Source: Lingula anatina
Lineage: Eukaryota; Animalia; Brachiopoda
Direction: 5' to 3'
DNA: 64,000 nucleotides
NCBI GenBank assembly: GCA_051362555.1
Contig: CM120641.1
Span: 3,534,001-3,598,000, forward strand
Positions 31,901 to 52,400 of the stretch are shown here, one piece after another (the first letter of the stretch is position 1; every line of letters begins with the position of its first letter). The notes under the pieces are model-generated. The model was not told the origin of the DNA. It ran no database searches and saw nothing but the letters and a program-made list of their open reading frames with translations. A program made the translations under genes and the position numbers.

Positions 31901-34900
31901 ATGTGGACTGCGCCAGACTGTTGCTGTACCACAAAGCACCCGTTGATGATGTCACCGTTGACTACCTGACACCTCTCCATGTAGCTGCTCACTGCGGGAA
32001 TGTGAAAACCGCCAAACTGTTGCTGGATAGAAAAGCGGAACCCAACTCCAGAGCACTGGTGAGAATGGGATGATGACATTGATTGGATTTGAATGTTTGA
32101 AATTATTTTTTGTTGGAAATTGAGAGTTAAAAATAGGTATTGGGATGTAGATAGTGTGGAGTTACTGTTTGAGTTTAATAGTTGCATTCAAGTAACTATT
32201 ACCTTAATATTTTTAATTTCAGAATGGTTTCACCCCTCTGCACATAGCATGCAAGAAGAACAGAATCAAAGTTGTAGAGCTTCTGTTGAAATATGGGGCC
32301 ACCATAGAAGCTACAACAGAGGTAAGGAGATACCACTCTGGTCTATAAGTATAGTCCACTGGTTTTGTCTAGTTCTTGTGAGTCATACTTAACATTTAAA
32401 AAATATCACAGTTGTAATATTAGTTACTGGAAGAAAATTTTAGTTGTAAAATTGCATGATAGATGTTGAAGCTAGCCACTATTAGAAATTTTATAGGTTT
32501 TATTTTAAATGTTTTTTTTTTCACCTTTCAGTCTGGCCTCACTCCCCTCCATGTTGCCTCCTTCATGGGGCACATGAACATCGTGATCTACTTGATCCAA
32601 CAAGGTGCAAATCCAGACTTCCCAACCGTACGTGGCGAGACACCTCTCCATCTTGCTGCACGTGCCAACCAGACCGACATTATTCGAATACTTCTTCGTA
32701 ATGGCGCACACGTGGATGCAAAAGCAAGAGTAAGTAATGCGATTCATATTTTTTGTCAACGTGAAGTGGTTGTTTCTATTTTGTTGGTAGTGGGTCTTAA
32801 CATTTTGGCAAGATATATGTAGACTAAAATAGACTTAAGATTACTCATATTACTTTAAGACTGTGGACCAGAAATCAAATTGAACAAGATGTATATCCAA
32901 CCTAAATTATAATAATTATAATAGAATATAATAAAAATGATCAAAACCATTTTAATGGCTGTTATTATAATAGACCTTAAATTAACTCTTCCTTTCTCTC
33001 TCCCAGGAACAACAAACTCCCTTGCACATTGCGGCCCGCCTGGGAAATGTGGACATTGTTGTGTTGCTGCTCCAACATGGCGCCTCCCCTGACGCTGTCA
33101 CTAAGGACCTGTACACACCGCTGCACATCGCAGCTAAGGAAGGTCAGGAAGAGGTGGCCTCTGTGCTGCTAGAACATGGGGCACAGCTGGACGTACAGAC
33201 TAAGGTAAGGACCTCATTGAAAAGTATCATAAGTTGTGTTATTATTTTTTTTTCTTTTGTAAACAGTTTGGCAAGATTTAAAAAAAAACATTTTTCTGTA
33301 TAATTTACTTGGAAATTATCAGTCTTTTTTATCCAGAAACAGTTTTGGGAAAGAATCTTGGAATAGTTCTATCAGCTGCCTAATTCACTTGGGCATCATT
33401 AGTATTTTCTTTCAACCGACATTTTGGCATAGGTTCTTTGAATAATTTCATCGGTTGTTTAATTCACTTGGGTATCATTATTTTGTTATGGTATTAAATT
33501 GGCTTACTCTTTTGTAAATGTTAGACTAAGGATTCTGCTTTTGTCTCTTTCTCCAAACCACAAGCTGTTTTTAGTAAAATGTTTTTAAGTGCACTTCAGC
33601 TGCAGTGAAAGTCTTCATCACTCTTAAGACATCAGTTTTTTATTTTAAAACTCACTTTTTTGTCAATTTCTTTTGTACCATACGGAATCTTTTATATCAA
33701 ATTATTTCAACTTAAGACTTAATGTATTGCTTAAACATGTTTTCGTTATAGAACACAAAATATTATTATATGAATTGAATTTGTTAACAGAATGTAATTA
33801 TTATTATTATAATTTTAAAATCACAGAAAGGATTCACACCCCTGCATATCGCAGCTAAGTATGGAAACATCAAGGTAGCCCGCCTCTTGCTGCAGAGAGA
33901 AGCTAACCCAGATATTCAGGGCAAGAATGGCCTGACCCCCCTCCATGTGGCAGCTCACTACAACAATGTCAATGTAGCCCTTCTGCTGTTGGAGAATGGA
34001 GCCTCTCCTCATGCAACAGCCAAGGTAGATATATGTTTAAAAAGTGTCATCAGTTGGGTAGATAGTAGAGATCTAAAGGTCTTTTGTCACAAGCTTAGAA
34101 AAATTTATCACTCATGTGGAATATTTTGACATGCCATGTGCCATCTTCATCAGTGTCAGAGTGACAAAGGTGACTTTAAGTCAGTAGTTGAGAGTACTCA
34201 AAGCTGTCCTGATATGTTAGGCTAAATATTACAAAGTTATATTCTAGAACCTATTAAGGTGCTTAACACAGGCCAAGTCAGCTCTGAATGATGGCCTCAA
34301 ATCTCTCAAATCCAAGGCAATATTTTGTCCAGTGACTGTTTAATATTTCCCAGTGACATGTATTAATGCCTTGGGACTATTTTCAGAACGGCTATACTCC
34401 CCTTCACATTGCTGCTAAGAAGAACCAGATGGACATTGCAACCACTCTCCTGGAATATGGTGCTAACCCCAACGCAGAGTCCAAGGTACTTATGCAGTCT
34501 GTTGATTTTTGTCAGTGTGATATGGAATTAAAAAATGAATGAATTTTAAAAACTATTAAAATGAGTAAAGATTAAGATAATTAAATTTGTCACTTTATGC
34601 AGTAATTTAGTAATGGTTTATTAAATTTGTCAGTCGAGCAATTTTAAATAAGAATTGTGTAATTCTGAAGCAGAAACACTTTAATTTGTATTTAAATTTA
34701 TATGCATATTGATATTACATAATTTTATCCTAACTTAAATTTAATATTTGTTCTCTGCTGACGCTTTTCTTGAGATGAGTGTCTGTTCTCGTTTGTCACT
34801 TATATCAGCCTGAAATACATAACTCTGCATTTCAGACAAGTAAGAAGAAGACTTGTTGACTAAATTTCTGTTGTTTATATGCCTTATGCAAAATTTTAAT

Positions 34901-37900
34901 GTGCATGCATTTGTGTGCTAAATCACACGAGAATATTCTGTATTATATCACAAAACACGTGCTGGCAATTGTAGAGTGGGTTCACCCCAATCCATCTGGC
35001 CTCCCAGGAAGGCCACACTGAGATGGTTGAACTTCTCACGGGGCGCGGGGGGGACCCCAATGATGCGTCCAAAGTAAGTAACTAACTAATAACGTTTCAA
35101 GCTGGGTTTTTCTCCTATCTTCCCCCCTCCTTTCTGTGGGAGCATGAAGTGGAGAAACCTCGTTGTTATTGCCATTACTAACAAGTTCTTGTTTGCCTAA
35201 TGCACAAACACTGCTTTCAGAGTGGGTTTACTCCCGTCCACATAGCGGTGCAAGAAGGACACTCTGACATGGTGTCCTTGCTATTGTTTCACAATGCAGA
35301 TCCCAATCAGAGGGCTAGAGTAAGTAGGGTGGACTGTCTTGCATGAGATGGTGCACAGGTGCTGATATCTGGTGGCAGTGGCAGGAGATGGGTTCAGTAA
35401 TAAGGCTGTCTAGAGTCTGTCCTCCCCTCCCTCCCCTCATAAAAAGCTCCATTCCTTCAAAAATCAGTTTTTTCAAAATAAACTTGCCAAAAAGGCTTCT
35501 AGATTTGGTGTTTACATAAACAATGTCTGAAAGATATTCTCCCGCAGTGCCTTTCTTGTTATCCTTGGCTACCAACAAGATTTTACCAATTGGAAAACCA
35601 TCAAATGAGGCACATTTATTAACTCAAATTATGCTGTTAAATGGACTATAAAGTCTTACCACCCCTACCAACACCCCCACCCACCTCTAAGTGCAGCCTT
35701 ATGACCTCCCCATCTTCTCTACTCCATCGCCAGCTCCGCCAATCTCCTCCTGCCTAGCTGGGGCTGGGGCGCGTGTGTGTGTGGTGCTTTACTAACTGAT
35801 ACTCACCTTGTGTGCTGGTTCTTCTCCTCCAGAGTGGTTTCACTCCAACACACCTGGCTTCCCAAGATGGTTACACTGACATAGTGTCCTTGTTGCTGGA
35901 GCATGGGGCACACGCTAACATCAAGGCGCATGTAAGTAGGCTAGGAGGTTACTAATAACTTAGGGACCTGACACAATGTGGGTGTGCAGATTGTCATGAC
36001 ACAATGTGGGTGTGCAGATTGTCATGACACAATGTGGGTGTGCAGATTGTCACACCTAACACAATAGAACACCCATCATGTAGGCTGACACTTCAAACTC
36101 GTTATCACAATCAACATTTTGCATCCCTTTGAGCAAGAATTTAAAAACTTTGGACTTGAGATTTGATAGTACTTACACATACACACATTGTTTATGTTCC
36201 TTACACCACTTTGCTGTCAAAACCAGAAACCAGAAACGATCTGGTGAAAGCAACAAAAGATAAAGCAGGTATCATACACACACCTAGAATAATGTAATAT
36301 GTTAAGCAACATGTACACTACGCCAGCAAATTTGACAAATGTCATTGCTTATTAAGCATATCATACATGTTGGTTTACATGGCATATGGGTTTTTGTAAG
36401 TTCAAGAGCTTTGGTGGGATTTTGGTTGTGTATTGTTGATGTTAATGTATCGCCAAATTCAAACAAGGAAAACAAAGAAAAAACACACTCATTATACTTA
36501 GGAGAATAAAAGAACATGCTATGCCACATAGTTTACTTGTAGACTGTTTTTCACAACACAAAACATGTATATATGAGAGTAGATGATTTGAATTTTTTTC
36601 CACCAAAAATATGACATTTGTTAACTTAGATAGACTCCAATACTTAGACAAACTAACCATAGACTAGACAGAAAGAATTAGTGCATAACAGACCTTGCAG
36701 TAAATCGATAACCTGAGTAGTGGGAGCCATTACTAGAGAATACATTAGCATCTGTTACCATATGCTATAGACCTCGGGGAATGTGTATTTGAAAGGGTTT
36801 TTGTGTAAAAGCTATTTTTATTCTGGTTTTATGTGCATGGTGATGTTTTTTTTTTTTTCTTTTTCTTTTTTTTTTTTTGGTCCATGAGAAATTGGATCTT
36901 GTTGCCCTGTTTGAAATGGACTGAGACAAAAAAATAGACTGGAATGATTTCCGATTTGTATGTGGGTTATTACACAGTGTGCTTTTCCCTTTTCCTTTGG
37001 TATTTTTCCCATCTTTTCAAATGCCATGAAAAATTAATTTAAAATGATTGTGGCTCTTCTGTAACTGAATGAGTCCAAAGATAATTGGCTTTTAAAATGT
37101 CACTGAATGGAAAAATACTGTGAAATGACTGCTTTATTATTTGATTATTTTGACCTGAAATGATTTTACCTATCAATCGCTGTGCCACACAGCCATGAAT
37201 GAAATGACCTGCTTGTACGATGTTTTATATATAATCTTCATATTATTTTGACATACATGAATTAGTTGTAAATTCACATTTGTATAAAGATATGTTGTAT
37301 CTCATTCTTTGAAAATAAGTTATCAGTAAGTATGGAGGCAATTACATGTAAACAACACCAGCTGAAATTTTGGTGTCAGATATAAATGTTCAAGAATTTA
37401 TTAAATTATAACACGGAATTTTTTAATTTTTTATCACGTTTTTATTTCTCTCTCTTTTAAAACCATGTTCATGGAGTAAGCTCCAACTTGTACCCAAGTC
37501 CTTCATGTAATTTCTCCCGTTCCCTTCAGAATGGTTTGACACCAATGCATTTGGCTGCCCAGGAAGACAGAGTGCCTGTGGCAGAAATCCTAGTCAAGAA
37601 AGGAGCTAATATTGATCCGACCACCAAGGTATGGTAACTTAAAAGAAATGTGTCTGATATTTCAGTCAGATTCATATTTGCAAACTTTTTTCAGCACAGT
37701 AAGTAGCGTTGTTTTATCAGACTTGATACTTCAAGCAAAATCAACTGAGACGACAGAGCATTACTGTTGTTGTCCTATGCACTCAGGAAATCTAAATGGT
37801 TTAAATTGAGAGTTCACACATGTTAACTAATATGTATGTAAAAGGTAGAGGCTTCATCAGAACCTGTTGTTTTATTCTATGATATGTTTTGATGGATACC

Positions 37901-40900
37901 GAAATTTTGCAGAAAAACAACTCAGATTTTAGCTTTTAATTGAAGAAACTATTACAGTAAGATAAAGTCTGATTAAGATGAAAGACTGAATTGTCTCTAT
38001 ATCTAGTTGTTATTATTCTTATTCTTATTATTATTAGGCTGGCTACACACCCCTCCACACTGCCTGCCACTTTGGTCAGATCAACATGATCCGGTTCCTT
38101 TTGGAACATGACGCCTCTGTCAACGCCACCACCAAGGTTGGTCACACGCCACTCCACCAGGCGGCGCAGCAGGGCCACGTCATGGTCATAGACCTGCTGA
38201 TTAAATACAAAGCTTCGCCTAATGCAGTCACAAACGTAAGTATGGACCGTGTGCATGTGTTCATATGTGTTATTTCAAGGCAGTGGCTTAATGCTAAAGT
38301 GCTGTATTTAGCAGGAAGTGTAAAAATTGTGTGAGATGTATTCAGAAAGCAATGCTAAATTATTATAGCTGTTTTGTAAAAAAATTCAAAATTGGAGTCA
38401 GTTTTGAGCCAAGGGCAAACCAACACAATTGCATGCAATATATATAGTCACAGTCTCAGTTGTGATACTACTCTTTGATAAAATTTATTTGAACAGCTCA
38501 ATGCAACTATTTTTAAAAGGAAAGAAAAAGTTTGAATTTAATAACATTATTATCGTTGCAAATATCACTGTCTTCCAGAATGGACAAACTCCACTTTCGA
38601 TTGCCCAGCAACTTGGCTACATCTCCGCTGTCGAGGTTCTGAAACCCATCACCACCGTGGTCGTAACCGAGACAACCACCATCAAGGAGCGCGGAAAGTA
38701 CGAGATGGTCGGACCAGAGACCATGCAAGAGACACTCCTTGACACAGACTCTGAGGAGGAAGGAGGTAAGAAATGTGACTTCAGAATAAGAAATAAGGTT
38801 GAATTGGTAAGTTAGGTAGCCTGAGGGGAAAGAAGTATTTTGCAAAAAAAAAAAAAAAAAAAAAAAGGAAATACCGAAAGTTGATTAGGGAAAAGAAGTG
38901 GGATAGAATGTTATGATTTGGAAACATTTGTAACCCATGTTGTTCTTGGGGAGGTCCTTGAGATAGAGGGGTGATTGTCTACTTGTAAATATGGACTCAG
39001 AATAGAAATGAAGATGGTGTAGTATCATTTGCAGATAGCATTATGATTTAAAAGTTCTTAAAAATGCCCAAGTTATGGGGTGGCTGAAATAGGAAAACTC
39101 AAATTTCATGAAAAAAAGGTATATTTAGCAGATTAAGGGGAATAACAACAAAATAACAGTTTAATGTGACAATAGAAGAGGGTGGAGGGTGGCAAAAATG
39201 TCCTAAGCATTAAACCATTCAGAACCATTTGCAATGAAATTTTTAGTACCGTACATATTCTGCCTTGGCATACTGTTATTGATTGATTTGTTTCTATGAG
39301 TCATTCAGGAAATGAGATATCATCCTGTGGCCATAGTAGATCAATAAAGTTGTCAGCCAGATTGATGATGTGTCTATCTGCATGTATCATAAGGGCAGAA
39401 GCCAGACAGTTTTATTACTTCTACATTAGAACATGCATATAACCCAGAAATACTGTACAGTCCCTATCTCATTAGAAAAGATGTATGGAAATTGCTAGCA
39501 TGACAATAATGACTTGAGTCCTCTGCTAATCACGAGATGGCAAAAATTGATGAATTGGGATATAATATATGGTGTGGTAAAATTGATTGTGTTGGACATG
39601 TTGCCTTGACGTTGAAGGGATTTGATATGCATTGCTTTATTCCTGAGAATGACAAGTGATAACCTAATCAATGGAGTGTATGGGTCTTGTTATTGATTGG
39701 TAGGGTAGAGTGTGTAGCAAGTAGTATTAAGAGATTGGTATTTTTTTTCTTTTTGCATATGGAAATTTCTTGTAGGATATTGTATTGGGAAATTTTTACA
39801 GAGTGAATTGAAATTTTAAATGTATGCTATGATCATTTGATAAAGTAGTTACTTAAAAATAAATTGAATGAATACTTGTCAAAATTCTCTTTGTGAGTGA
39901 TTATTATTATTTTGAAAAGAGATAATCAAAATCATTAAAAGCTTGAATCTAAAATTTTGATAAAAATATAACTTCACAATGTTGAATATTCTAGAATTTA
40001 AGTAACTACTTTTTCAGCAAGAACATTTTTTTTTACTTATAACATTTTTGCATGAAACTATTATATTGATGTTGTATATAAATATATATTGATATGGAGT
40101 ATGCCCATATTCTGTCAATATTCTATTCATGTACCCTCTTGCATTGAATTGCTGATACCTCATGCACCCGCTTTAGACTGTTGCTTAATTGTCCACTAAG
40201 CCTTGAGCCTCGAAACCCAGAGTCATTTCTCCAAGCATGTGTCTCAATTTGCACTTATATCAATGTTATCAAAGTGTAACCAATCCTGCTTGCATGCAAA
40301 TGCTCTATAGAAACTAACAGCTTTACTTATTATCTCTCACATTCAGAACATATTACCTCTACAGCTGCACATAATGAACATATTCTCCTTACTGATAGTG
40401 TGAGCATTCTACTGAATCCTCTGAGAAGCATGTGTCATTATAGTAACAGACTCATGGAATTGAAGTGCATTCTAACATTGCATGACCATGCTCAAAATAT
40501 TCCCATATAGAATACTTTCAGCATATTCAGAGATGCCGATACACATACTAATATTTCCAAGAACACATTTCCACCAAATTACACTGTTGTACACCAGCAG
40601 TGACACGCATGTGCATGATAACACGTATCATAGTTAATACTATCTTTTCAACAAAAATTTGACTCATGTTAACTAAAATTACCAAATTCATCCCCATCAC
40701 CTTTTTTCTGTAACATAACCAAACAACATAAGGACAAATTCAAGTCAAATATCAACTATACCAGTTACGCTAAAGGTGGTATGCAGTGGTGCCCCCTATA
40801 CTCACACTCAGTGGTCATAGTGGTTGCTTATCTCTGTGCTGTCCCCCCAGGTGAAGTGTTTGCTGTAGAAGACTATATGCCTCGCTCCCCATTACTGGGA

Positions 40901-43900
40901 GGCGACCAGAGGGTCTACCTGCCATATTACCAGGGCGATTCCATGAGGGTGGATGGACGTAAGTCATGTGTGGAGAAAGTTGATTGGTCGATTGGTATTC
41001 GGAGCTATTTCTTATAATGAGCACACTATAGCAACAACTGTCAATGGCAAATTCCTTACTGCTTGATTAGTTTCAATTCACAGTGCCATATTTTCACACA
41101 AATCGTCATGCTTTGATGTAGACTTGCTTGTTGATGTTGATGTGTAGTTTATTTTGTTTGTTTATTATTATCTTAAATGTTGTAATTATTGTGTAGTTTA
41201 CAGCTGGAAGAAAAAATAAAGGTAAGGTTTTCATGTTGTCAACTAGTTTAACACCACCAACTATGCTTTATCCTCATGCAATGTGGATACAGCCAAACCC
41301 TCTTGCTTATGGTGGCTTTCTGCCTCTTTTAGTCCAGAGTCCTAGTCTCTGAACTGAGCTGGGAAGGGTAGAAACCTAAAGAAATTTCAGATATTGACCC
41401 CACTAATGTCATTGCAGGAGAAGACACCATCTTGGGAGACCAGACTTTCGCCTATCTGCAGCAGGATGACATGCATCAAGAGTCAGCTATCAGACCTGTT
41501 AAGGTAAGTGCACTGTATAGGACTCTTATGCCATGGCCCTTGAAGCAAAGGCACATTTACACATGCCCAGTGGAGCTAATTGGGTACCAGGGTGGCACAA
41601 AGTTGGGACAGTTTTATATAGATAACTCAGTGCTTTATTTGATGGAGCTACCTTGACTTTTAGGTTAGCTGAAAAGTTGTGTGAATTTAGACTAAACTGC
41701 TTTTCAAAATTGCTGAATGTGAAATTTTAAAAAAGGTGCTACTTGTGGCTTAAAGGTTATCGGCCTTGGACCAAGAAGTGAATAGCAATATTTAAAACTT
41801 AACAGTGTGCACTGGGTACACAGCACACGTGCTACACTATTGTTTTAAAATAAACTTCCCAAATTATGTGCCATTCTGGTTCAAAGTGCATTGTGTAAAA
41901 CGGGGGTTAGCAGAGCTTCAGTGCACAGACTGGATATAACATAGCAGGTATCTGTGTACCTATATGCACTGCACAGGTGGAGGTATGGTGTATAACATGG
42001 GTGAATTGACTGACAATTTAACCTCACACTCTTAGCACAGTTGACATGGTGGAGGGACGGTGTGATCAATTATGTGAGTCTGATTTTTTATGGTCATGCA
42101 ACTATCTTAGTTGTCTATAAACCTCTCATTATCTTTATTCTGAGGTGATCTTCTTCATAACTTCTTGTGAAGATCTTCAGCATATATTTATGCACTGTGC
42201 AATCTTTTTAGCTGCAGTTCTGAAGCTTTATGTAGGATAAAGAGACATAGTAATGCTGATGACTATTGCAACTACTACATAGAGTTGCCCTGGTCTTACT
42301 TTAGTCCTTTTTAACTTGATATATTTCTTCACTTCTCTTGTGGTGGTCTGCTTTCTATAAACTCTCTTCAGTGGTTGGGGTTAGGAACATGGGTATCCTC
42401 TCTTCTGCTGTGTAGAAACATGCAGTTATGGTTTGACTTCATATCTATAGACCAAGAATGGACTAATTTATATCACCAGATTAAAACTTTGAAATTCTCA
42501 CATGGAATCTGGTGATGTCATATAGTCTAAGTTGATTTTTGTGTGAACACATCCTGTAAGTGGTGGGGGTCTCTGGTGGAAAAAAATTCTTGTATGGCCA
42601 GGCTATGCATGCACAGTTCATTTCTACTAATCTGTATAACCTGACTGTTCTAACATAGTATTTAGGCAATGCTTTTCTAGTGTTTTGCCCCCCCCCCCCC
42701 CTGCACTTGTTATACAAGATCAAACTTGCACTATTATCTTGTAGAATTTGTGTATGTTTGTGTGACTCAGCATGAGTGCATGAGAATGCATGTCAGGAAC
42801 TAATATACTAAAATTCTTTTTATTTCTTTTTATCTATATGCATTTTTTCATTTTCATTATTATGTTCTTGCACTTGTTTTTTGATTTACTTAAAATTCGT
42901 AACCAAATTAATTTATTTAATTTTATTTTGATTTTTGATATAATTATCTCCCCATTTTGTTACTAATGTTGTTTTCATAAAATGCAACATTTTGAGCATA
43001 TTTTTATGTACAGTGTTAATTTATTTGGTTAAATTGTATTGTAAATGTTTTTCAGTAGATTGTAGTTTAGTTTATTCCCAGCATGTTTTTGTTTATAAGT
43101 TGTATGAATGTTTTTTAAAATTAAAAAAAAATTAATTTTAAATTTATTTTACCTGGAATGATTTTATATTTTGGTTAGCTGAACAGAACTGTTTACTATC
43201 TTAGGTGTAGAGTAGTGAGTGCAACCTATTGTAACACCCTTGTACAGTACACAAACCCAGTGAAGCCGTTCTATATAGACAGAAAAATAAAAAAAATACT
43301 ATTGAAGGAATTAGTTTTGCCTCATCTCTGAAAGTCAGTTTGAACACCCCAAATTCTGAGTTGTCTAGAAACCTGCCTCAATTCCCAGCATACTAGTACT
43401 GTTCACTGGAGAATATGCTTGATAGAGGTGAATTGATTCTGCTTCTTTGAAACTCAATTAATTACACACATTTAAAATAAATTAATTCTTGTTTAACCTA
43501 TAGAAATGTGAGTTAATGTACCATTCAGAAATTAATTTTTCAAACCAATCTGTTGAAGTTTTCACACAGGCATATGGCAAAATCAGGCATCTAAATTGAA
43601 AAAAAAAATCCCCATTTTTTTGGCAAATGGCAAAGAACTTTTCAACAACATACTGTCAAGGGTTTCCAGTTGCAATAGGTTTTAGTATAGATGTTGTAAG
43701 CATGTTGTGTTGCATTGTTGCCATTGTGTTGTTGCCTAGGACGGCTACCTGTCCCCAGACCAATACACACAGGAACCCTACTCCCCAGGGTACTCCCCCA
43801 CAGGATATGGGGAACAGATGGATCTGTCCCCAGGACCTTTCAGCCCTGGTGGTTTTGGACCCGACCAATTGAGGGAGTATGATGAGGACTTTGCTTATGT

Positions 43901-46900
43901 CCCTGGGGATAAAAGAGCAGTGAAGGCTCGTCCCGAGTCTTTTAATGATCCCCAAAGACGACCACGTCCTCCTGGCGATGATAAAGTTGCCAAAAAAGCA
44001 CGTCAGGAGTCTCTGTCTGATGCTGCCATGCGCGCGTCAATGGCGGATGATAAACAGAGAGGTTCCTGGCGTGGCGGCCCTGAGGATTCTGGTCTTGGTA
44101 CTCTACCAGAAGGGGCCCAGTATAACCATTACCCTAATGGGGGTCAGGTAAACTTCACCATAAACCCTTCACTTCTATGTTCTTTTTCTATTTCTCGGGA
44201 TAAGCATGGTTGTTTTGGAAGAAAACTTGGTTTCTGTCTCCTGAGGTGTTTGGATATTGGGAAAGAAGGATACTTTTAGGATACCAATGGATACCAAAAG
44301 CAGAGAAAAGTTTGTCTTTGTTAAAGCTTCAAAGACATATCTTTTTTATCTTGAAAATGTTTCTAAATTATATTTTCTTTGATACATGATTTACATTCTT
44401 TTTAAAGAAAGAATATGTTTGAGTGAAAATCATTAAAACATTATAGGTATTTGATAAAAATGATATTCATATAGAATGAAATCTATTGTTTTTCTTTTCA
44501 CTTGCAGGAAGACAAGATTGAAGCCCAGTATCGCCCCTCTGCATACTCACGACCCGTGATGCAGACAAACGCTTTGGGCAGTGAACCCTTTTATGGCTCA
44601 TCCTATAGTGGCTCCACCTTCAGTGGACAATTTGATGCGGACAACGTCCAGGTGGATCGCACTCCTGTGTTTAGCGGGTAAGATGGCGAGAATGCAGTGA
44701 CATATATGGACCTCTGAATATGCATCAGTAGTGGCAGTATTTTCACGTTCTGTAACAGAAAAATTGCTAATTATGCACGGTGTTATGTTAGAGATGTTAA
44801 GAGTTTGGCGATGTTAAAAGACTAGAATGTTATTATGTTTGTACAGGTATGCTAATATCTGGTAGAACATATTAGATGATCCCAGTTTTCAGCATAACCC
44901 AAAGAATGATTAGATTCTACTAATTAAAACAGTTTTTCAAAGCATATGAACAACTGATGTACACAAAACTCTGAGCTTCAATGCAAGGGTCTGGGGAGCA
45001 ACAACGACAATAAAAAACAAAAGCACTGCATCATAAATTTTTCAATTTTTTTTTGCGTCCAAATCACAAGTTCACCTTCAAGAATGATTCCTTAATTAAC
45101 AGCATACCTGTGCTGTAGTGTTTAGAATCCTAATTAGCTTCAAAAGCTTCACTAACTCCAGTTATTCTCTCTTCTACACCTCATCACAGAAAGCTGAAGT
45201 GGAAAAAGTAAGTGGTTTTGATTTCAATGTGCCATAAAAAGTATGAATTTTGTCAATTTTTTTTTCTTTTTTTAAAGCTGGTGCTGTACCAAAGCATGCT
45301 GCTTCTTTTGTTATCTCTTACAAGAAATGCAGGTGATCATATCAGACAAAGGAATTGTTTCTCTCTTATTTTGGACTATACCATCTTTACTGTTTATATT
45401 TTATTCTGTTAAAGAATTTAGATGTGATAACAGTTTTATTTAATTTATTTCCTCCTGTTGATATCCCCACCTATACCCTCACCTATTTTTTGTACCAAAA
45501 GAACCCCCCCCCCCCCCCCCCCCCCCCCCCCGCCCTCTTCATCTTTCCTGCATGGAAAACACTTTGCAGTTTTGTAACACATACTTCCTCTCTGAGGTTG
45601 CATGCTGAACACAGACTGGTTTCACAACTTTCAGACAAGAAATTTAAGTCTACTTTGATTCAGGGTGAATCTAGTAGTTCACTTAAAATAAGCAGCACTG
45701 TCAATAAGATATAACTGTCTTTTTATTAAACAGACACAATATTTCATTTAATTGGACTGTTATGGATTCATCTTGATGCAAAGTAGGCAAAGATACTCAT
45801 CCTAAGCTAATGCAAACTTTACTCCTAAGATTCTTTAATGAGAGCATTCCCTGTGGTAACTTAAACCAACCAAATTTACACCACCCCTTGCCTTGTGATG
45901 TCTTTCAGACTATTTTTGGATGAAATTAGTCCAATTCTGAATGTGCCTTAGTATTATGACAGCCTAATATGAAATATCATTCCAGAAAACTTCACTGCAA
46001 AAAAATGATATTGCTATATTAGCTCTGGTAATAATCTACAAATCACATTCCAAATATTTTAAAGTAAAAGCAGTTGTGTTGTCTAACCATCTGAAAAATC
46101 CAATAAAAATTGGAAATTATAGTAGCCAGTAAATAGATCAATTTAAGAAAATGTTTTCTCAGAGTTCATTTTCTCTGGAGAGTTTTCCATAATGTCTATG
46201 CATGTTAGCATATGATATGATGACATCAGAACCTCCTCCTTACCTGTGAATGTGAATAGTTTTCTTACAATTATTACCTGGTTCCTGGTTTAATTGACCG
46301 TTCAATCCTAACTGTTTTTTGTTACTGTTGTAAAGCAGCTGAAAAATCTCAAGAGTCTCTGTGACTTTGGATGGGTTGCTTAACAATGTGAAACATTTAT
46401 ACTTTTTTATACCAAGGTAAAATTTTGATTTCGTATTTATGTTTGCATGTTGCATTGAAAGTGTTATAAACCTGTAGAATGATGTAGCCTTATTTTGAAA
46501 TGTTCATATTTTAGTTATTGTTTTTATTTAGCTGCCTATATGGTACGAAGGAGGTATTGCTAATGACAAAGCCTTATTATATTATATTATATTATATTAT
46601 ATTATATTATATTATATTATATTATATTATATTATATTTGTATGTTTATCATTAGCTTCAAACAAATGGTCGAGTGGTTATGTGTGATATTTATAAGTCA
46701 GTATAACCACTTTGCTGTGATCTCGTAGAGATTGATTTACTCTGTTGCAGAGAAATTTAAGTGTTATATCATCCCTGGCTTTATCTCATTTGTTGATGCA
46801 TTTTACTTATTTACTTGTTTTCAGTTAACTTTAGTAAAAAAATCAAAATTATGAGTATATATTTTTGAAATGTTCCCTTGCATCTTTCAGCTTCCTTGTC

Positions 46901-49427: not shown

Positions 49428-52400
49428 TGTTTATGTATCTTTGGCCCTTTTTCCTTCCATCTTTGCTGAAACTTTAATTGTATCTTAAACTTGTAAATGA
49501 TTTACCATACATGATTATCCATCACAGAATTATATTTAACTGTCAGTATTTTTAATTCATACTTTGTGTATTAATCAAAGTACAAATGTCAATAAAATGA
49601 CATTTTCAACTAACAACTATAGGGTTCTGTTTTATTTTAAAAAACCCAAAAATTTTGACAACAAACTAGCCTCAGAGACTCCTCTCAATTCATGAACACA
49701 CAAAACAATGTTTTGCGAGTCACAAGTTCCATTGCCAAATATCACATGTGCATTATGAACATTATGAAAATTTCTGACTTAAGTTGATTGCTTGACTTTA
49801 AAAATTGATATAAGAAAAAATGAATGAAAGCACTTGCCAATTATCTTCACACTATTTAACAGGCACAACCAATCCCCCCGGATCTCGTAGCCAAAATGCT
49901 TGGCAACCGGGTAGCGGTCAGTCCCATAGTGACCGTGGAGCCACGTCGCAGGAAATTCCACAAGTCAATCACGCTGACCATTCCCGTACCCCAGGCATCT
50001 CAGAAAGGCATGATCAACCAGTACGCGGGCGAGACGCTCACTCTGAGGCTGCTGTGTAGTATCACTGGTAAGAGACGTCGTAAGTTTTGCATTTTGCTGC
50101 TTCTTTCCCTTGCTTTTTGCCTTCTGCTATATTTACTACTATTACTAATTGCAAGTACTTTTGCCACCAATCAGTGATTAAGTATTTTGAATTCGTAATG
50201 AAAATTTTTTAAAAAGGAATGAGATGATGAACTCAGTTTTATTCTTTTCAACTACTCATAATGTATGGAGCTGACATTGTTTGGAGTCTACCACTTTGCT
50301 CGTCTTACCTGCTTGCCTGCGGCTAGTTCTGTGCTTTCTGGGACTGGAAACCCTGTCTACAGATTTAGCCTCACTTACTGATTAGGCTGATCTTCAAAAA
50401 AGTTTATTTGAATTCTCGTCTAATGCGAATGCTCTTGAGTATGAAGAAATAACTTTGGGCTATTCTTGAAATGATTTGACTTGAACAAATGACCTATTAT
50501 ATTTATATAAATTCATTCACTGCCCTCCACTCTTCCCGCATTCCTTTTTTCCCCTCCACTTCCATAATATGATGACAGTGCACCATAATCTGATCCCTTC
50601 ACCCAGACCCCCTCCCCCAGTTCACCCCCACCACTCGCACCCACTCCGCTGAAAGTGAATCCTTTCTTGAATGGCCCACAGCAAAGTGATTATTTTGAAT
50701 GGAGAATGCTGATTGTGAATTCTAACGCCTGTCCCTTGCTATTCCCATGCACCTCTGCAAGGTGGGAATGGCAACAATAACAATAACCACCACCATCAAT
50801 CTGGAGGTATTTATGAAGATTATGTGTTTTTTATTATTCTATTGGATATTCTGATTTTCTCTACATTGGTTCCTATTGCTAGCTTTGATGTTTTGTTTTT
50901 CTTAATATTAACCATTTTTTAGCTTAGATTTTTTATGCATAATAGTGCTTTTGCACAGTGGGTGACTGGCTGTACTAGTGGCTATCTTTGCAGTTTTAAA
51001 ATTAAATCTGTGGATTTTTTTTTTCATTTCTCTGTGTTTTGAAACTAGAAGTGCAAACATCTCCAGTTATTTGCTCTGTAGAATTACTTAAGCTCACATA
51101 CACAATTTACAATTTTTTGTGTGACATCCTATCTACAAAAGCATGATTTAAACTAACAACTTACTTTATGTTCATCTGGACCTATTTATTTACACATAGA
51201 AAAAATATCATTTTCATTCTGTCACTGCACATATATTTATATTATATATACATTATTTGACAGATTTTTGTCTTCAAATCAAAAATAAAAGAGAGAGAGA
51301 AACAAGAAAAATTATAGCATACACACTAACACTCTTTTTATATCAGATTTCTATCTTTACTCTATAATAATAGATGTATTTAATTTGCTGTCTTTCAGTT
51401 ACATTTGTGTTTATTTGATTTTTCCTTGAATGCTATTTTCAACATTAGCATGTTTTATACAGTGTGCATACATATATATACTAGAACTGGCTTTTAAATT
51501 AATTTTGCTTAGTTCCTTTATATATGAATTCAGTTTTCTTGAATACATTGACATTTCAAGTGATTTGTTACAGTTAGAAATATTTTGTATTGATAATTTT
51601 CAAATATGTCTTTTCATTTATTTTGTGCAATCAGGCGGAGATTATGGTGACATGATTTGCCATGCAATTCAGTCTAAAGGAAAAATAAGATTGTTTTTTA
51701 TTCCGGTTTTACCTTAAACAGAAAATGTTCTTTATAAGCAATTATTTCAGTTGCATCATAACCTTGGAGAAAGTTTTTTCCAGTTTCTTTATGAAGACTT
51801 TTCAGTAATTGCCACCATAATTATCTTCACCACAGTACTGTATCAGTAATCCTGCAATGCTTGCATGTCACACCCCTCCCCTCCAACCCACACCCCCACC
51901 CCCTCAGCCAGTCACCCCTCTCCAAAAGCACATTAATTAACTTTAATTCAATAGTTTTCTTCACTGTTGTGTTCCAGGAGGTCAAAGTCCAGCGCAGTGG
52001 GAGGACATCACGGCCACCACTCCTCTGACCTTTGTCAATGATTGTGTCTCTTTTACCACCACAGTGTCAGCCAGGTAGGTAGCAGGTGCCTGTTCTGGAT
52101 ATTTTACAATTACTGTGCATGTTGTGTTTTTTTTGTTTTTCTTTTGCTGTCAAACCCCAATACTTTCTGGTGTATATTCTTTGTCATCAGTAGCAGCAGA
52201 TTATATTTCATTTTATTTCCATTGCAGATTTTGGCTGATGGACTGTCAAAATATCAATGAGGCAACAAAAATGGCAACAGAGCTGTACCGTGAAACTGTT
52301 GCTGTGCCGTTTATGTCAAAGTTTGTAGTTTTTGCAAAGCGCTATGATCAGCAAGAAACTCGGCTTAGGTGCTTCTGTATGACCGACGATAAGATGGACA

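Follow-up and report, generated by a model that had tools for sequence, protein, structure and literature searches.

Canonical ankyrins, among them AnkB, AnkG and AnkR, Drosophila Ank2 and UNC-44, have 24 ankyrin (ANK) repeats, a ZU5-ZU5-UPA module, a death domain and a linker of the AI-c type (PMC5135030, PMC4358367), and these repeats are said to have stayed essentially the same for about 500 million years (PMC4358367). Homologous mutually exclusive exons, as catalogued in PMC8373072, PMC5740500 and PMC4165533, have equal length and phase, encode homologous peptides and are used one per transcript, with one form dominant. Several ways of enforcing the choice have been described. In docking site/selector systems (Dscam exon 6, 14-3-3 zeta, Mhc; PMC6071210), RNA pairing selects one of many exons whose lengths are multiples of three. 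For Drosophila serpent (srp) exon 4 and Dscam exons 4 and 9, non-identical, crossing and competing stems, each enclosing a variant exon, were proposed; those stems are conserved and were tested by compensatory mutation (PMC4691838; PMC6071210). In C. elegans, the unc-60 and let-2 switches operate via the STAR protein ASD-2 and SUP-12, with CUAAC and UGUGUG elements in the branch region of the acceptors that are repressed and a STAR site downstream of the promoted exon (PMC3875643, PMC4165533).

The window (the whole stretch of DNA that was analysed, 64,000 nt, from Lingula anatina) contains a canonical ankyrin gene of the same general plan, with an AI-c-like linker, in which three tandem exons occupy the place of a single repeat, ANK repeat 20 (R20). 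The trio has the common features of the catalogued exon clusters and differs from them in that the exchanged unit is one whole solenoid repeat, present in three copies; it also differs from canonical bilaterian ankyrins, since all relatives examined encode one R20. The exons of the region and the junction reads that connect them are the following.

34387..34485, + strand: constitutive exon for ANK repeat 19 (R19), the upstream partner, with read joints to a, b and c.
34975..35073, + strand: variant exon a for R20, the dominant form (163 reads join it to R19, 155 to R21 and 3 to c).
35221..35319, + strand: variant exon b for R20, a minor form (8 reads join it to R19 and 11 to R21).
35833..35931, + strand: variant exon c for R20, a minor form (12 reads join it to R19, 3 to a and 14 to R21).
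37530..37628, + strand: constitutive exon for ANK repeat 21 (R21), the downstream partner, with read joints.
38579..38765, + strand: exon for repeat 24 and the start of the linker, with the Met, Leu (+4), Asp (+8) spacing of AnkB AI-c (spacing compared with PMC5779224).

Exons a, b and c are each 99 nt long, in phase 0 and stop-free, with AG before and GTAAGT after every copy; the introns measure 489 nt (R19-a), 147 nt (a-b), 513 nt (b-c) and 1598 nt (c-R21). The gene encodes 24 ANK repeats when one copy is counted. The original prediction had placed three intact phase-0 exons between those for R19 and R21 and had argued that the canonical count requires exactly one of them; the coordinates, the splice sites and the repeat count agree with it on both points. 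Downstream, the ZU5-ZU5-UPA module and the death domain give collinear tblastn matches to residues 1001-1641 of an Owenia fusiformis ankyrin (P0007), and PF17809 is carried by the matches of the UPA exon. In a tree of 16 rows the window ankyrin falls in neither the mollusc nor the ecdysozoan clade; its nearest neighbour is Owenia (84% over 703 columns), in an unsupported placement that would suit an annelid or another lophotrochozoan that is not a mollusc.

The assignment of the trio to R20 rests on protein comparison together with position. The double-repeat exon upstream can be aligned with human ANK1 535-599 and with AnkB chain 5y4f 133-198; this alignment and the construct start at aa 430 (PMC5779224) identify it as R17-18 and the cluster as R20 (AnkB 661-693). 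Against four protostome ankyrins, R20 gave the best score among R7-R24 for each copy (12 of 12 comparisons). The human chains gave a mixed picture: a and c matched AnkB R20 best, the best match of b was R20 in one AnkB chain but R23 in two others, and R23 was the best human ANK1 match for all three copies. The copies are identical to one another at 58-59 of 99 nucleotides and 17-19 of 33 amino acids; since the R7 exon is just as close to exon c (60/99 nt) as a and b are, paralogy cannot be proved from nucleotide identity on its own.

Four of nine RNA runs of the same species (X1, X4, X7 and X9; about 6-30% of each was read) were aligned to positions 33780-38300. A joint was listed only if it had at least 3 reads with at least 2 starts within a run, and where a synonymous variant displaces the alignment by 3, the two rows of a joint were added together. 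The counts are given in the order X1/X4/X7/X9.

R19-a: 5/87/38/33 reads.
R19-b: 0/4/3/1 reads.
R19-c: 0/4/5/3 reads.
a-R21: 9/96/31/19 reads.
b-R21: 0/0/5/6 reads.
c-R21: 0/1/5/8 reads.
a-c: 0/0/3/0 reads.

Each copy is thus joined to both constitutive neighbours in the reads, and entries from R19 are shared 89% to a, 4% to b and 7% to c. At the threshold of 3 reads and 2 starts, the four runs yielded no listed joint for full skipping (R19-R21), against 183 entries, and none for a-b or b-c double inclusion. The a-c joint was found in one run, X7, with 3 reads, amounting to 3/158 exits from a and 3/15 entries to c; within that run, 3 of the 8 reads entering c came from a. Near-exclusive use of one copy per transcript is established with high confidence, read counts for b and c being small, and exclusivity is leaky for c. 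The junction reads support the mutually exclusive cluster of the original prediction, with this small leak.

Were the three exons independent cassettes, the gene would produce ankyrins with 23 to 26 repeats. Every combination is in frame and the 3 a-c reads exist, but the best independent fit expects about 16-18 skips, 8 a-b and 11-12 a-c reads, where 0, 0 and 3 were listed, and just 1-2 direct entries to b and c, where 8 and 12 were observed. The fit is poor on distinct read starts (G=92) and remains so even when 8 hidden reads each are granted to the skip and to a-b (G=45, p 5e-8), which makes this reading very improbable. The share of the minor forms differs between studies, 9/192 reads in X4 versus 36/157 in X7 and X9 taken together, with b and c together reaching 21-26% of reads in each of the latter two; the difference may be due to tissue or genotype. 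Over positions 33780-38300, X7 and X9 carry many fixed, mostly synonymous differences from the window and two fixed amino-acid changes in exon a; their source may be a distant population, or a sister species that bears the same name.

The search for the cluster in relatives covered the best 80 of 313 metagenome loci, many of which are repeats of one species. By the filter, 3 lacked R19, 28 ended before R21 or missed its anchor, and 49 spanned R19-R21. Among the spanning loci, 45 had one R20, 2 had an additional broken trace (L020, L027) and 2 were mis-anchored (L047, L070), with one R20 on inspection. In the 45, R20 was fused to R19 in 12 and to R21 in 17, stood alone in 1 and was intronless on both sides in 15; the last are uninformative, because a cluster cannot show where no intron lies on either side. 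Since R20 shares an exon with R19 or R21 in most genomic loci, a clean swap is impossible there. No homologous three-exon cluster was found among these best 80 of 313 loci. The protein searches agree: among 195 proteins, 138 had the R19 anchor, with one R20 per gene; no extra repeat between R19 and R21 was found in the 64 of 150 representative proteins that had both anchors; and in the isoforms listed for Saccostrea (15 of 29), Arion, Pomacea, Potamilus, Artemia and Owenia, no alternative R20 was seen, one R20 being common to each set. A profile search with a, b and c returned 41 short proteins, and most of the 31 inspected were R7-type exons, with one ordinary R20; a linker search gave 10 weak matches.

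The cluster thus appears restricted within the sample examined, in which the closest relative has only 86% UPA identity and annotation can miss minor exons. In another animal, L027 carries at 1167-1385 a near-identical partial duplicate of the start of the R20 exon with its acceptor, 120 nt upstream and drifting out of homology, and L020 has a degenerate trace of an R20 duplicate at about 1475; these traces suggest that the R20 exon duplicates repeatedly. Two further contigs, L002 (4082-4180) and L004 (3799-3897), contain a stand-alone R20 exon with GTAAGTAC donor; no second R20 copy was found in about 0.9-1.2 kb downstream, and the contigs end before R21, so that a cluster may be present there. 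Exon c and the R20 of Pomacea have in common Tyr14, Ile17 and the C-terminal His; this likeness is not read as orthology of variants, the tree keeping the window ankyrin outside the mollusc clade.

Pairwise comparison of a, b and c gave dS of 1.8-2.6, which is near saturation and rough, dN of 0.40-0.44 and dN/dS of about 0.15-0.25, values pointing to an old duplication under purifying selection. These values support the original proposal that all copies are maintained; the absence of stops on which it had leaned is weak evidence of constraint, because each exon would remain stop-free by chance with a probability of 0.26-0.46. Exon a, the dominant form, is furthest from the consensus of 60 R20 sequences (19/33 aa) and c is closest (23/33), with b between them (21/33).

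It could be argued that only a matters and that b and c are old duplicates under relaxed selection, spliced as tolerated noise. The two take just 4% and 7% of entries, c has Thr where 95% of 60 relatives have Leu, and the read variants listed (six rows left out and one synonymous site added from a separate table) are 4 non-synonymous to 3 synonymous in a/b/c versus 2 to 32 in the constitutive exons (Fisher p 0.005). Against this, 2 of the 4 non-synonymous variants fall in a itself, b and c are not minor in X7 and X9 to the degree that the pooled shares imply, and the copy closest to the ancestral sequence is c; the near-saturated synonymous sites, the low dN/dS, the exact length, the intact splice sites and the lack of stops also speak for maintenance. 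We consider the noise reading improbable, though not to the degree of independent cassettes.

How one copy is chosen was approached through the introns. Nonsense-mediated decay is ruled out as the enforcer, as originally claimed: all copies are 3n (99 nt) and stop-free, and double inclusion or skipping gives neither a frameshift nor a stop. Short-intron interference and U2/U12 mixing do not fit the sequence, with introns of 147 and 513 nt that are all GTAAGT-AG (branch points predicted). A complementarity search gave one helix per exon, with its 5' arm on or beside the likely branch point.

34904..34924, + strand: predicted helix arm Ua, which covers a's weak candidate branch point (34917-34923) and holds a UGUGUG stretch; duplex of -22.4 kcal/mol with 35345-35364.
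35159..35182, + strand: predicted helix arm Ub (35159-35177), which continues into TACTAAC, the consensus branch point of b (35176-35182); duplex of -22.9 kcal/mol with 35370-35387.
35345..35387, + strand: predicted adjacent arms D1 (35345-35364, pairing with Ua) and D2 (35370-35387, pairing with Ub).
35773..35796, + strand: predicted helix arm Uc (35773-35789, rich in GT repeats), abutting the consensus branch point TACTAAC of c (35790-35796); duplex of -25.8 kcal/mol with 36267-36283.
36267..36283, + strand: predicted arm D4, partner of Uc, for which 36168-36187 is another possible partner.

The distances from the end of the 5' arm to exons a, b and c are 43, 43 and 54 nt. With equal flanks (100 nt upstream, 400 nt downstream), the flanking helices of a, b and c are the strongest three among 28 exons, and each was matched by 0/60 shuffles, a level approached by 1 of 25 constitutive exons, which reached 1/60. 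With other window sizes the three held the top three places in 3 of 4 cases and were within the top four in the fourth, in a ranking uncorrected for GC. The windows and motifs were chosen after looking at the data, and the Uc arm is largely a GT microsatellite, a kind of repeat that dinucleotide shuffles under-represent. Other tests were less uniform: the best helices of six intron-pair tests were equalled by 3, 5, 4, 70, 0 and 29 of 100 shuffles, and the region around b folds with z = -1.23 (21/200 shuffles as good). The pair probability of Uc-D4 is 0.81-0.92, that of Ub-D2 is 0.66-0.74 in local folds and 0.01 in the longest fold, and that of Ua-D1 is 0.00-0.10 in nested folds. A shared docking site at 34607-34617 was dropped with a pair probability of 0.00. 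Inside the predicted Uc-D4 loop, positions 35969-36052 hold three perfect copies of a 28-nt unit, and a change in their number could shift the use of exon c.

Compared with the described systems, the trio is unlike docking site/selector clusters in that no single site pairs best with all three flanks, every upstream arm having a different best partner. It would resemble serpent and Dscam exons 4 and 9 in its predicted crossing, enclosing stems, and differs in the placing of each 5' arm at or next to a likely branch point and in that Ua-D1, which is predicted to cross Ub-D2, spans two exons; the serpent and Dscam stems are conserved and were tested by compensatory mutation, whereas those of the trio are predictions from one genome, and helix-based control is plausible on that footing. 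Because the helices cross, Ua-D1 and Ub-D2 probably compete. In the default state, Ub-D2 and Uc-D4 would be formed and only a would be free; replacement of Ub-D2 by Ua-D1 would block a and free b, with Uc-D4 still formed; and the opening of Uc-D4 would free c. Opening of Uc-D4 while a is still free would give the a-c leak that was observed, as the expected error. The helix model by itself leaves the missing b-c joint unexplained.

Short motifs in the same introns point to proteins as well. The hexamer TGCATG is taken here as the RBFOX motif.

35081..35090, + strand: tandem ACTAAC/ACTAAT just past the donor of a, a candidate STAR/Quaking-type element (motif match; putative function).
35340..35345, + strand: TGCATG 20 nt past the donor of b, a candidate RBFOX site (motif match; putative function).

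ACTAAY occurs 5 times in the variant flanks versus 0 in 25 constitutive flanks (0.23 and 1.9 expected; some constitutive exon boundaries are off by 1-2 nt in this tally), with the bipartite element directly after a and before b and an ACTAAT also after c; the ACTAAC before b and c may simply be strong branch points. TGTGTG is found upstream of a (1) and c (4) versus 1 of 25 constitutive exons, and TGCATG before a and after b. The motifs match the ASD-2 and SUP-12 elements of C. elegans unc-60, where CUAAC and UGUGUG repress an acceptor (PMC3875643), and the positional rule of QKI, whose action depends on position (PMC9122611); as in the worm switches, a candidate STAR site lies downstream of the favoured exon. 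The likeness has its bounds, unc-60 being no homologous internal exon cluster and the protein sites of the trio being putative.

RNA-binding proteins alone could therefore make the choice according to these motifs, with ACUAAY bound by a STAR/Quaking protein that activates a from downstream and represses b and c at the branch points, UGUGUG bound by a protein of the RBM24/SUP-12 type, and UGCAUG bound by RBFOX; the helices would then be incidental. The enrichment of ACTAAY and the placing of its bipartite element, the near-absence of TGTGTG from constitutive exons, the position of TGCATG, the unc-60 and let-2 precedents (PMC3875643, PMC4165533) and the differing minor-form share between X4 and X7/X9 all favour such a scheme. 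It leaves unexplained why all three exons have the gene's strongest flanking helices, with arms ending at the branch-point position; the ACTAAT after c does not suit it, and the share difference may be genetic, given the many fixed differences of X7 and X9 from the window. We hold proteins as the sole selectors to be unlikely, if still a serious contender, and helix and protein control can act together. Far less credible is a steric bar on a-b joining, by which the ACTAAC 8 nt past the donor of a would be a branch point too near the 5' splice site: the motif at 35081 is followed by a pyrimidine-rich run and no a-b joint is listed, but in the 147-nt intron a consensus TACTAAC is available 45 nt upstream of b, the stretch from the proximal motif to exon b contains AG dinucleotides, and the steric bar cannot account for c. 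The explanation to which we incline, at slightly better than even confidence, is that nearly every transcript uses one copy, mostly a, and that the choice is likely made by intronic helices that would mask branch points, probably with STAR/Quaking assistance.

For the protein, the question is which faces of R20 the swap would change. We assume the segment limits of the standard ANK repeat layout, and take positions 1, 3, 8, 11, 12, 31 and 33 as groove-facing from designed-ankyrin work; single 33-residue ANK repeats do not fold alone. Among a, b and c, all four positions at the repeat start are invariant, and differences occur at 4 of the 8 positions of inner helix A, 7 of the 10 of outer helix B and 8 of the 9 in the loop that follows. 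Of the groove-facing positions, 1, 3 and 11 do not vary, 8 and 12 show conservative changes, and 31 and 33, in the finger loop, change more. Inner helix A and the finger loops face the groove, and helix B makes up the outer face (PMC4358367). The original idea that the variants tune the binding groove is thus upheld in part: finger-loop positions 31 and 33 differ, which makes an effect at the groove edge possible, whereas most differences lie on outer helix B and the loop. The swap would keep 24 repeats and alter mainly the outer helix, the loop and the finger tip of R20.

The mapped membrane-target sites of ankyrins lie in R1-14 (PMC4358367). The R20 part of the AnkB groove binds the protein's own autoinhibitory linker, with Leu668 (repeat position 8) and Leu701 burying Met839 of AI-c (PMC5779224), and in the window linker the AI-c Met is retained, with the Leu and Asp at the same spacing. 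Band 3 contacts ankyrin-1 on the outer faces of AR17-19 and AR21-24 (10.1101/2022.02.10.479914). From these comparisons, an effect on stability, on the outer face or on the grip of the AI-c linker seems more likely than a rebuilt groove. Elsewhere in the gene, four candidate linker exons (about 40851-40959, 41419-41504, 43740-44148 and 44509-44678, boundaries approximate to 1 nt), with AG/GT ends and open frames, sit in the stretch from repeat 24 to ZU5 that holds AI-b in AnkB and AnkG, and are possibly alternative; a small candidate exon at about 50762-50807, with an Asn/His run, lies between the ZU5-B and UPA exons. No long open frame was found in the 64,000-nt window (longest stop-to-stop 179 aa), and a giant ankyrin exon, if the gene has one, therefore lies outside it.

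The class of event, homologous mutually exclusive exons arising by tandem duplication, is known; the gene is unexpected. In the accessible parts of the supplements of the human catalogues PMC8373072 and PMC5740500, ANK1, ANK2 and ANK3 were not found, and the controls TPM1 and CACNA1C were; PMC5740500 lists candidates in ANKS3 and ANKRD36C, which are other ankyrin-repeat genes. In the C. elegans survey, unc-44 is listed as not mutually exclusive, at other exons (PMC4165533), and no mention of mutually exclusive R20 exons was found in the available portions of PMC5135030 and PMC9013439. No description of a canonical-ankyrin case was found in the literature searched; an entry in the Drosophila or Kassiopeia catalogues is possible.

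The fullest interpretation would be a regulated three-way switch of one repeat in an otherwise frozen solenoid, set by tissue for autoinhibition or outer-face binding and enforced by a relay of crossing, branch-point-hiding helices, an architecture distinct from the docking-site and serpent-type models; taken as a whole, this remains a speculative picture that we would not expect to hold in full. The import of the locus is bounded by its being known from one non-model species and belonging to a well-known class of event. For splicing, a compact 3-kb, NMD-proof cluster of three exons with three candidate stems would be a small test case for branch-point masking. For the ankyrin family, the groove of repeats 18-24 is known mainly for binding the protein's own linker (PMC5779224), and the outer-face sites of band 3 flank R20 (10.1101/2022.02.10.479914); a natural three-way swap of R20 would offer ready-made variants for asking what repeats 18-24 do.
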